DNA of 64,000 nucleotides, from the sequence record NC_070989.1; one strand, given 5' to 3'. This stretch comes from Escherichia phage vB_EcoP-CHD5UKE1. This document shows, piece after piece, positions 57,001 through 59,534 of this stretch; the first letter of the stretch is position 1, and each line of letters begins with the position of its first letter. Below the pieces are notes generated by a model. That model searched no databases and had not been told where the DNA came from. It worked only from the letters and a program-made list of their open reading frames with translations. A program made the position numbers and the translations under genes.

Positions 57001-58104
57001 TTACAGCGCTTGCTCTAACTGATTTTCCAGATGGTCTGGAATGTACCCTGTGATATTGCTATCACTGTGACCAGACTCACGTAGTAAGTCAAAAATAGCA
57101 CGAATACGTTGTTCTGGAGCGTGTCTTACTTGAGATAGGTCTGCTGTACGAAGCATAACCAAAATCTCTTGATACAAGTTGTTAGCGTTCCCTCGAACAT
57201 ATCCAAGGAATCCATAGAAGTCTGACATAAGACGTAAGTCAACAAGAACCTCTCCGTTGGAGTTAGTTCGACGTAAACGAATACGACCAGACTGTTCTAC
57301 TTCATGAGAACGGCAATACAAAACATCACGGGCCATACAATACCCTGAATGCAAATCAGATTCATCCAGATTGTAATCCAGAGGAAGGTAAGGAAGCATT
57401 GGGGCAAATCGTACAGTATTTAAGTGCTCAATAAACTGATCATTGCTCATATCTGCGTTATCTAAAGCCAGCTTCTTCAACATCAAGAAGCGGTTAACCA
57501 GATTGAGAAGTTGACCACGTTTCCACTTAGGCTCACTGATACGGAACTCAATTGAACCGTATTGGGCAAGTGGCAGAAGGTTCAGAGATGTATATTTATC
57601 CCATGAACGAACCAGACGGTTGAAGAATTCTTCACCATCGTAGTTAAATGCGTCAGAGGCATTCATTACCTGTGCTTGTACCACTGCAAACGCAGGGCAG
57701 AAATTGCTACGATAACGATGGTAGCCTGAACACTTGAACAGCATCTTTTCATAGAAGGTCCAAGCAAGGATGGTCTTCTTGAGGATATTACTATCAGCAT
57801 CCCTCATATCCATATGAACGTGAGTAGAGCAACGCCAAGTCCCCTCGGCGTGCGATTCAGCTACTGCTTCACTCAGGTTGTTGATAGCGTCTAACAACTC
57901 CTGTCCGTTGTAAGGTCGTGAACATACCATTTCACAACCGTTACGCAGGGAACCATCCTCTGTGCAATCCCACATATCTGCTTCGATATGTTCAGAACCT
58001 TCGAGTTCAAGCTCAATACCGACACCGCACTGAAGTGCAATTGAACTATGCGCCTCAGTTAAACGACCTTCTCGATATCCAAAAGTTTGCGCTACAGTTG
58101 TCAT
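57001..58104 (-). CDS. glutamine-synthetase-like amidoligase (GCS2/Amidoligase_2-type carboxylate-amine ligase) (367 aa)
   Basis: N-terminal GVGIELELEG and STHVHMD blocks resembling the YbdK/GCS2 GxExE and HVH motifs. Confidence 0.55.
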   Translation of the reverse strand: MTTVAQTFGYREGRLTEAHSSIALQCGVGIELELEGSEHIEADMWDCTEDGSLRNGCEMVCSRPYNGQELLDAINNLSEAVAESHAEGTWRCSTHVHMDMRDADSNILKKTILAWTFYEKMLFKCSGYHRYRSNFCPAFAVVQAQVMNASDAFNYDGEEFFNRLVRSWDKYTSLNLLPLAQYGSIEFRISEPKWKRGQLLNLVNRFLMLKKLALDNADMSNDQFIEHLNTVRFAPMLPYLPLDYNLDESDLHSGYCMARDVLYCRSHEVEQSGRIRLRRTNSNGEVLVDLRLMSDFYGFLGYVRGNANNLYQEILVMLRTADLSQVRHAPEQRIRAIFDLLRESGHSDSNITGYIPDHLENQLEQAL

Positions 58105-58718
58105 AACGAATCCACCAACGTAATATTATAATTGCTAAGGTTTTCAGAAATGTGATGAAAGTGTTCCAGAAGTCGCATCGGTTGCTGACCGTAAGAGTCA
58201 CGAGGTGCTTCCAGATCTACTTGTCCTACCAGTGCACCTTTATAATGCACTTTACCATCTGTAGGATTGATGTAAATATAACGAGTAACCAATCCATCAA
58301 ATTCAGGATTGAACAGACTGTAAACCATTTCACCAGAGATAGAACGACCAATCCCCGGAGCGTTTCGAATCTTGTTACCCATCAAACCCTTCGCTCTCTG
58401 ACGAACAGGGTTGATATGAGTCCAGCTTACAGTGTTGCCGTTATGGAACAGATAACCAACATCAGGTGATTCAAGAATCAAGGTTGGGTCGAACACTGGA
58501 ATATTCATCGTAGTGTTTCGGAGATTCCCATGCTCATTCTTGTACCACTGCTCTACAACAAAGTACAGAGCCTGTTCTGCTTCGTGTGAGAAGTCATCGC
58601 TGCGGAAGTTACCGCTCTGCTCAACACCAATCACAAAACACGGAAGGTTGATATTGCCTGCTCGTTTAGCAATCCATGTACCATTATAGTAATGAGAAAA
58701 ATCAGCTACTAAGCTCAC
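58101..58718 (-). CDS. hypothetical protein (205 aa) within the ligase cassette
   Basis: ORF translationally coupled to flanking ligase genes. Confidence 0.45.
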   Translation of the reverse strand: MSLVADFSHYYNGTWIAKRAGNINLPCFVIGVEQSGNFRSDDFSHEAEQALYFVVEQWYKNEHGNLRNTTMNIPVFDPTLILESPDVGYLFHNGNTVSWTHINPVRQRAKGLMGNKIRNAPGIGRSISGEMVYSLFNPEFDGLVTRYIYINPTDGKVHYKGALVGQVDLEAPRDSYGQQPMRLLEHFHHISENLSNYNITLVDSL

Positions 58719-58727
58719 GATAACCTC

Positions 58728-59534
58728 TTATGCTACCTGAAGGAGTTTGATCTGCTGGTCAGCTTCTTTAACGTTGTTCCCGTTAATGATTTCATGAAGC
58801 TTCTCAATCGGAAGGCGAGAGTGCAATGCCATCAGAGTGGACATATCACACTGCTGAACAACCTTGTCAACCTGATCGTAAACAAACTTACGGTTTTCAC
58901 GATCACTAATCCAGAAGTTAGACAGAGAACGGTACTCAATACCATAGTCTTTATAACGGATTGCAGATGCTTTACCGTAGAGTTCTTTACGGCGAGTATC
59001 TTTGTCCATAATTACTGCTGGGAGAGACAGGAAGTAGTCACACAGCACACCCAGCATCATCTGAGTTTGCAGAGTGATATCCAAAGCACCAACTACGCCA
59101 AGATGTACGTGACCACCGGCAGTACGAAGTCCCTTATTCTGAGAAGTCGGGGATGGGTTTTTCTGACCAGTGAAGGCGTTGAAATCAGGAGTGCACCCGA
59201 AGATGAACGCTGATTCATTAAAGGTCTTCATCTCTTCTTCAGTGAAGATGTGAGAGCTAACACCCGGAGCTGTTTCCATGTCCAGTTTGTTCAGGACATT
59301 ATTGGTGAGATCGATACCACGTTGCATGTTATCGTTAAACGCTTCAAAACCGCTCTGTGGGTCAATATCAAACTCAGCCAGTACGTTGTCCTCTTGGAGA
59401 CGAACATCCTTAGCCAGAGCGATCTTATCGTCCTTAGAGCAGCCTAATAAACCGGCTACAGAAGTGATGATACCATTGCTAGTACGAACAAACATTTCAG
59501 GGTCAGAGCCGATAAGGAATTTGCGCTTAGTCAT
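58728..59534 (-). CDS. second amidoligase-like protein (268 aa)
   Basis: LIGSDPEMFV and GGHVHLGV blocks, variant of the same ligase signature. Confidence 0.45.
   Translation of the reverse strand: MTKRKFLIGSDPEMFVRTSNGIITSVAGLLGCSKDDKIALAKDVRLQEDNVLAEFDIDPQSGFEAFNDNMQRGIDLTNNVLNKLDMETAPGVSSHIFTEEEMKTFNESAFIFGCTPDFNAFTGQKNPSPTSQNKGLRTAGGHVHLGVVGALDITLQTQMMLGVLCDYFLSLPAVIMDKDTRRKELYGKASAIRYKDYGIEYRSLSNFWISDRENRKFVYDQVDKVVQQCDMSTLMALHSRLPIEKLHEIINGNNVKEADQQIKLLQVA

Follow-up and report, generated by a model that had tools for sequence, protein, structure and literature searches.

The DNA analyzed here is a 64,000-nt stretch, hereafter the window, of the genome of Escherichia phage vB_EcoP-CHD5UKE1 (NC_070989.1). 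Its minus strand encodes two predicted carboxylate-amine ligases of the glutamine synthetase/glutamate-cysteine ligase (GS/GCL) fold within a cassette of further enzyme genes. The first ligase gene (57001..58104) encodes an Amidoligase_2 protein of 367 aa (PF12224) and the second (58728..59534) encodes a minimal COOH-NH2 ligase of 268 aa (PF14395). In nucleotide comparisons, the 10-kb stretch from 52000 to 62000 matched 97 phage records, with DNA identities over nearly its full length of 98.8% to LorandFenyves_Bas91, 98.2% to vB_EcoP_SU10 and 97.2% to phiEco32. Because of this 97-99% identity to phiEco32, SU10 and Bas91, the phage is classified from its sequence as a Kuravirus (Gordonclarkvirinae) coliphage, and by the same comparison the two ligases are the orthologues of phiEco32 gp84 (phi32_84) and gp86 (phi32_86), whose names are used below. 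The gene order of the region is the same in the annotated phiEco32 and Bas91 records. Public records label the two genes "amidoligase enzyme" and "COOH.NH2 ligase", and PF14395 itself bears the name of phiEco32 ("Phage phiEco32-like COOH.NH2 ligase-type 2"). Both ligases and the surrounding cassette have thus already been named and published, and the locus is a rediscovery; as a discovery it adds little, as both proteins are type examples of families defined in 2009. According to papers that cite this work, the ligase families were defined by Iyer, Abhiman, Burroughs and Aravind (2009), and the operon was described, with peptidoglycan modification as its proposed function, by Iyer et al. (2009) and Hardies et al. 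(2013).

Assignment of both proteins to families of the GS/GCL superfamily is almost certain. Both are exact minus-strand open reading frames (ORFs); gp84 matches Pfam Amidoligase_2 with 33.7 bits (gathering cut-off 22; E = 4.5e-8) and gp86 matches Pfam COOH-NH2_lig with 34.0 bits (gathering cut-off 25; E = 2.3e-8), a domain carried by all 120 gp86 homologues among the matches listed. The PHROG matches of gp84 and gp86 have E values of 1e-158 and 3e-118. A first-pass annotation, made from the letters alone, had called two GS-fold amidoligases here on the basis of GIELELE and HVHMD blocks in gp84 and LIGSDPEMFV and GGHVHLG blocks in gp86; these blocks were found where it had placed them, within the longer motifs GVGIELELEG and STHVHMD in the case of gp84, and its call of two such ligases is borne out. 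Its description of the two proteins as divergent was, if anything, an understatement. Kinship between gp84 and gp86 at the sequence level was rejected (BLASTP E = 3.3; hhalign probability 0.25%), and the two are linked through fold and motifs only. By contrast, its placement in the GCS2/YbdK-type family holds at the level of fold and motif but not of profile: neither ligase matches Pfam GCS2 (PF04107) at E ≤ 0.1, and sequence and profile searches returned no PDB relative of either protein, YbdK included.

The structural comparison relies on AlphaFold2 models of both ligases, whose pLDDT values are 92.4 and 94.5. The catalytic domain of gp84 comprises approximately residues 1-195, and the helical region C-terminal to it is conserved in part only. 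The catalytic-domain folds predicted for both ligases match glutamine synthetase and glutamate-cysteine ligase structures. YbdK, GS and GCL rank above PafA and Dop among the structural matches of the models, and the apparent neighbors include the gamma-glutamyl-amine synthetases 9qur and 8wwu. Alignments were built from 41 and 38 homologues for the two ligases, and the residues of the metal, ATP and phosphate sites (ExE, E, HxH and ExR) are fully or almost fully invariant in 69-70 homologues. The conserved Glu, His and Arg residues of both proteins fall on predicted beta-strands in the order of the YbdK blocks, with GIELEM, GQHVHVG and GTVEVRV in YbdK corresponding to GIELELE, THVHMD and GSIEFRI in gp84 and to GSDPEMF, GGHVHLG and GIEYRSL in gp86. 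The first-pass annotation had named the absence of a profile match and the loss of the metal-binding Glu and His residues as findings that would speak against its assignment; neither was observed, because the profile matches are significant and the invariant Glu and His residues are kept on their strands. The likeness to YbdK (PDB 1tt4; E. coli b0581) is one of fold and local motifs only; no significant sequence or profile match was found, gp86 is approximately 100 residues shorter and the genomic context is wholly different. Taken together, gp84 and gp86 are two anciently diverged, predicted ATP-dependent carboxylate-amine ligases of the GS/GCL fold.

The two ligase genes are not strictly in tandem, as had been proposed, because a conserved ORF of 205 aa (58101..58718, minus strand; phrog_4877) lies between them. 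The stop codon of this gp85-like orphan gene overlaps the start of gp84 by 4 nt, and its near-invariant residues are D6, Y11, P85, R106, G111 and G165. A second orphan, the gp87-like gene (59527..60498, minus strand; 323 aa; phrog_13102), is located immediately upstream of gp86, the start of which it overlaps by 8 nt; the invariant residues of this family are C26, F27, D120, R130, Q219 and Y231. Searches of Pfam (with 40 and 23 members), PDB profiles, NCBIfam, PADLOC and a profile search of 5.8 billion proteins provided no annotation for either gp85 or gp87.

Downstream of gp84, the gp83 gene (54891..56921, minus strand) encodes a stand-alone class-II, N-terminal nucleophile (Ntn) glutamine amidotransferase of 676 aa, which over its full length matches GATase_6 with 55 bits (cut-off 27; E = 1e-14). 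This gene starts with an ATT codon (56921-56919) that lies 8 nt behind the Shine-Dalgarno sequence AGGTGGA and immediately precedes the codon for the catalytic Cys. A truncated version of 563 aa, in which the nucleophile is lost, was rejected as an ORF-finder artefact that arises because finders limited to ATG, GTG and TTG skip the ATT start; the full gene is the 2031-nt coding sequence annotated in phiEco32 and Bas91. Across 72 gp83 homologues, Cys2, R86, N111-G112 and D129 are invariant (the catalytic Cys, R-x-A-T, N-G and D elements). The C-terminal ~200 aa (54891-55500) hold three clusters of the CxxC...CxxC type that resemble zinc ribbons; this extension is lineage-specific, with an occupancy of approximately 0.2 among the 72 homologues.

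Beyond gp83, the order of genes is DUF7195, a small ORF, the ATP-grasp gene, three small ORFs, the GGACT gene and then a primase/helicase gene, and the cassette genes are tightly packed, being close or overlapping. The small DUF7195 protein (gp82; 54655..54888, minus strand; Pfam DUF7195 E = 4.7e-17), encoded between the amidotransferase and ATP-grasp genes, is an accessory component of the cassette; it shows conserved residues at R15, P18, D25, P49 and P51, an unconserved C-terminus and a strand-helix-helix pattern that resembles a ribbon-helix-helix regulator. The ATP-grasp ligase of the RimK/Ddl type (gp80; 53254..54447, minus strand) matches phrog_2599 at E = 1e-187; its partial matches to RimK, MptN and Ddl (E = 1e-7 to 1e-5) are under the family cut-offs. 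Residues K85, E157, R159, K173, D229, E241 and N243 (D...E-x-N) are invariant in 70 homologues of this enzyme, and its C-terminal extension of approximately 120 aa is lineage-specific. The gamma-glutamylamine cyclotransferase of the AIG2/GGACT type (gp77; 52133..52552, minus strand) matches Pfam GGACT with 63 bits (E = 3.9e-17), and its YG-L motif and the catalytic Glu, E84, are invariant in 45 homologues. The cyclotransferase, the Ntn amidotransferase, the orphan between the ligases and the phiEco32 naming were all missing from the first-pass annotation.

The small ORFs of the cassette other than DUF7195 are confined to the Kuravirus lineage. One of them, an ORF of 82 aa (52999-53247, minus strand) between the ATP-grasp and GGACT genes that was found at 10 loci of the Kuravirus lineage only, is the orthologue of phiEco32 gp79, reportedly the phage inhibitor of host RNA polymerase (Pavlova et al. 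2012). Another, of 69 aa (52554-52763, minus strand), is shared by the window, Bas91 and some relatives and is missing in phiEco32; because of this insertion or deletion, the alignments to phiEco32-type records fall into two pieces. Apart from this one additional ORF, there is no material difference between the cassette of the window and the "gamma-glutamyl-amide/peptide-bond" operon of phiEco32, LUZ24, tf, PA11, RIO-1 and 7-11, which has the same order and the same Pfam families.

Conservation of the cassette was assessed in viral sequences by a pattern scan of IMG/VR, which yielded 485 viral contigs with a relative of gp86; 79 loci (35-100% identity) were analyzed with iterated hidden Markov models, and co-occurrence was counted wherever 7 kb or more of sequence was available downstream, which held for 69 loci. 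The gp86 homologue is accompanied by Amidoligase_2, the amidotransferase and the ATP-grasp ligase at every one of these loci (69/69 each), so that co-occurrence is obligate, and the gene that directly follows Amidoligase_2 is that of the amidotransferase in 69/69. Ligase 2, Amidoligase_2, the amidotransferase and the ATP-grasp ligase keep this order in 65/69 loci, a gp85 family member lies between the ligases in 59/69, GGACT is found in 46/69, usually directly after the ATP-grasp gene, and DUF7195 is found in about a third (22/69); a gene of the gp87 family is located upstream of gp86 in approximately 45 of 81 loci. The general order is thus gp87-like, ligase 2, gp85-like, Amidoligase_2, class-II amidotransferase, (DUF7195), ATP-grasp and GGACT, and this canonical phiEco32/LUZ24/RIO-1-type cassette is complete and in order within the window. 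It was also found in Aeromonas phage LAh_8 and in a 189-kb contig. The catalytic residues of all five enzymes are invariant across 45-72 homologues, down to approximately 35% identity. A published table for UFV-P2, a LUZ24-like phage, lists the same cassette, which is likewise listed for PSA-HP1 (PMC5498523).

The conserved architecture suggests that the cassette is a multi-step system for amide ligation and amidation, a general mechanism to which we assign a probability of roughly 55%; its chemical steps and its target we infer. Enzymes of the GS/GCL fold phosphorylate a carboxylate with ATP, after which ammonia or an amine attacks. Each of the two GS-fold enzymes would, by analogy, use Mg or Mn bound by Glu and His to convert a substrate carboxylate into an acyl-phosphate, followed by amine attack. 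Amidoligase_2 and the adjacent Ntn amidotransferase would form a two-subunit glutamine-dependent amidotransferase that converts R-COOH to R-CONH2, as in glutamine synthetase, and hydrolysis of a gamma-glutamyl amide would be the alternative role for the Ntn enzyme; the two-subunit amidotransferase appears most likely because gp84 and gp83 are always adjacent and the residue set for glutamine hydrolysis is complete in gp83. The second GS-fold ligase and the ATP-grasp enzyme may then add further amino-acid or amine units, and the cyclotransferase may take off a gamma-glutamyl group as 5-oxoproline. The net result would be a stepwise building and trimming of unusual amides of the gamma-glutamyl or isopeptide type in the infected cytoplasm, early or in the middle of infection. 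The proposal in the first-pass annotation that two ligases and an ATP-grasp enzyme act in sequence is reasonable. It agrees with published reasoning, by which ligases of different folds encoded in one operon are usually taken to carry out successive ligations (PMC4431377), and with that on this cassette (PMC5498523).

A similar logic of enzyme classes, combining a ligase with a GGACT protein and an Ntn amidotransferase, can be recognized in butirosin synthesis (BtrJ/BtrG) and in the Puu pathway (PuuA/PuuD). In these pathways, ATP-dependent gamma-glutamylation provides a transient handle, which either a cyclotransferase of the AIG2 type or a glutaminase-like hydrolase later takes off. They differ in that they are cellular pathways for small molecules and involve carrier proteins or oxidases, which are absent here, and the phage families are distinct from theirs. 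Butirosin is reportedly treated in the 2009 paper of Iyer and colleagues.

Several points weigh against a multi-step amide ligation system. No substrate-defining domain was recognized in the cassette, and a GS-fold protein can be a hydrolase, as is Dop, which is itself among the structural matches. The Ntn enzyme, which has a weak EgtC-like match, could act as a gamma-glutamyl hydrolase instead of donating ammonia. As gp85 and gp87 are without characterized homologues, essential steps may be of an unforeseen kind. Moreover, the peptidoglycan target is only a published conjecture, and a literature search gave no biochemical or genetic data for any member of the cassette.

An unlikely alternative, modelled on PafA and Dop, is protein tagging or editing. 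In such a scheme, one GS-fold enzyme would join the carboxylate of a Glu/Gln side chain or of a C-terminus to a lysine in a protein of the host or the phage, the other GS-fold enzyme, the Ntn enzyme or GGACT would deamidate or remove the adduct, and the ATP-grasp enzyme would add RimK-like glutamate tails. PafA and Dop are, like gp84 and gp86, a divergent pair of GS-fold paralogues in one system. However, a Pup-like tag whose C-terminus is conserved is missing from the cassette, which instead encodes an amidotransferase, an ATP-grasp enzyme and a cyclotransferase; in pupylation loci, a Pup-binding proteasomal ATPase is encoded as well. Nor was any conserved small protein that ends in a fixed Glu, Gln or Gly found alongside the cassette. 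A role of DUF7195, the sole recurrent small ORF, as a Pup- or LysW-like carrier was rejected in view of its variable C-terminus and its absence from 47/69 loci. The ranking of YbdK, GS and GCL over PafA and Dop in the structural matches further argues against a tagging system.

For an amide-building cassette, the leading acceptor candidate, taken from the literature, would be a carboxylate-rich precursor of the peptidoglycan stem peptide. In its specific form, the proposal is that peptidoglycan precursors of the host are edited by the cassette, for instance through amidation or extension of the free carboxylates on D-Glu, meso-DAP or the terminal D-Ala, with an altered envelope and superinfection exclusion, or the tuning of lysis, as the outcome; this we consider a tentative and somewhat doubtful possibility. 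The stem peptide has three free carboxylates, a number matched by the three ligases of the cassette. Amidation of peptidoglycan by a ligase acting with a glutamine amidotransferase has precedents in MurT/GatD and AsnB1/LtsA, in which an ATP-dependent carboxylate-activating part and a glutaminase amidate a peptide carboxylate, as may be envisaged for Amidoligase_2 and its amidotransferase. These systems differ from the cassette in that they use Mur-ligase or Asn-synthetase domains and, in GatD, a class-I glutaminase, and no sequence relationship links them to the phage proteins. Upon inspection of the sequences, the cassette enzymes are without obvious signal peptides and are therefore compatible with action on cytoplasmic precursors. 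On the other hand, domain scans of the cassette found no Mur-ligase, transpeptidase or muropeptide-binding domain, and the cassette is located beside replication genes rather than lysis genes. Peptidoglycan is proposed as the target in papers that cite Iyer 2009 and Hardies 2013 (PMC10580990, PMC5498523, PMC6256558); one of them, citing Iyer 2009, relays the suggestion that the amidoligase and amidotransferase of phiEco32 act on the cell wall, modifying it and blocking superinfection (PMC10580990). The same cassette has been read as serving peptide-bond or gamma-glutamyl-amide metabolism with putative peptidoglycan modification (PMC5498523, PMC4819975, PMC6256558, PMC10580990).

Outside phages, relatives of gp86 are nearly absent. 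A survey of one genome per species across 185,579 bacterial and archaeal species recovered only 22 loci with a gp86 homologue, and nearly all of these were phage-sized contigs in metagenome-assembled genomes or tiny contaminant scaffolds. A bacterial, non-phage context for gp86 was therefore rejected, and judging from these genomes the family is in practice phage-restricted. Scaffolds of less than 1.2 kb from Herbiconiux daphne (L088, L089 and L094) carry fragments of a COOH-NH2 ligase and an amidoligase that are 47-64% identical to the proteins of the window; they probably represent phage contamination of the assembly. This distribution bears on whether the cassette is an auxiliary metabolic one that re-routes host nitrogen, glutamate/glutamine, glutathione-like or polyamine pools for replication, with gamma-glutamylation as in Puu. 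Genes for an amidoligase, an amidotransferase, a "glutathione synthase" and a cyclotransferase have been read in this way for one phage (PMC10945688), such genes are listed as auxiliary metabolic genes in OM43 phages, and the gamma-glutamyl-amine synthetases 9qur and 8wwu are among the structural neighbors of the ligase models. Nevertheless, gp86, gp85 and gp87 are essentially without cellular homologues, unlike typical host-derived auxiliary metabolic genes, and so strict an architecture of seven genes points to a dedicated product more than to a boost of bulk metabolism, which makes a metabolic role distinctly improbable.

The position of the cassette next to replication genes is relevant to a further alternative, namely that DNA bases or their precursors receive amino-acid or amide groups from the ligases, as a hypermodification or with another anti-restriction function. 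A primase/helicase gene flanks the cassette in 42/69 loci and is downstream on the same strand in 37. This alternative is attractive because the BASEL study reports that Gordonclarkvirinae are remarkably resistant to restriction-modification systems and are without a known DNA-modification pathway. Yet DNA of phage tf, which has the same cassette, was cut by RsaI, HpaI, EcoRV, SmaI and HaeIII and was cloned, and five ORFs scanned in the replication region (44402-49627) included no known hypermodification enzyme (hydroxymethylase, base kinase or DNA glycosylase-like transferase). Besides ThyX and a dCTP deaminase, the scan identified a ferritin-like domain and, as a weak match, a PolyA_pol-like nucleotidyltransferase; the phiEco32 annotation lists no such hypermodification enzyme either. 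In addition, no nucleic-acid-binding domain is conserved across the cassette; the Cys-rich tail of gp83 is lineage-specific. Modification of nucleic acids by the ligases is thus most improbable. That the cassette determines the restriction-modification resistance of Gordonclarkvirinae or another form of defense evasion, through an aminoacyl or gamma-glutamyl adduct on DNA, nucleotides or a host immune protein and with gp85 and gp87 as new substrate recognition proteins, is a broader conjecture that we consider very unlikely.

Within the replication module itself, ThyX, the dCTP deaminase and the PolyA_pol/CCA-like nucleotidyltransferase are encoded on the minus strand at 44896-45552, 47666-48199 and 48209-49627. 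The BASEL authors speculate that these three enzymes underlie an unidentified DNA modification behind the resistance of the subfamily.

The remaining interest of the locus is that its cassette, with five enzymes and two orphans, is strictly conserved and confined to phages, where it is spread over coliphages, Pseudomonas LUZ24-like phages, phages of Aeromonas, Salmonella and Proteus, and many marine podoviruses. Since Bas91, a BASEL phage that is nearly identical to the window (98.8%), plates on engineered E. coli K-12, experimental study is now straightforward, with genetics, mass spectrometry and in vitro work all tractable.

With regard to regulation, a scan of the window for promoters and terminators was uninformative, because shuffled controls contained more promoter-like sites than the actual sequence. 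In the gap upstream of the gp89 gene, a terminator-like hairpin with a T-run behind it (62278-62261, minus strand) was observed, which may mark the boundary of the cassette transcription unit. A weak promoter-like site (62423-62394) lies near this hairpin, in a promoter scan that overall was not above chance. Across the whole window, the GC skew changes sign at approximately 30000, being positive before and negative after this position, and this coincides with a switch of coding strand from one half of the window to the other.

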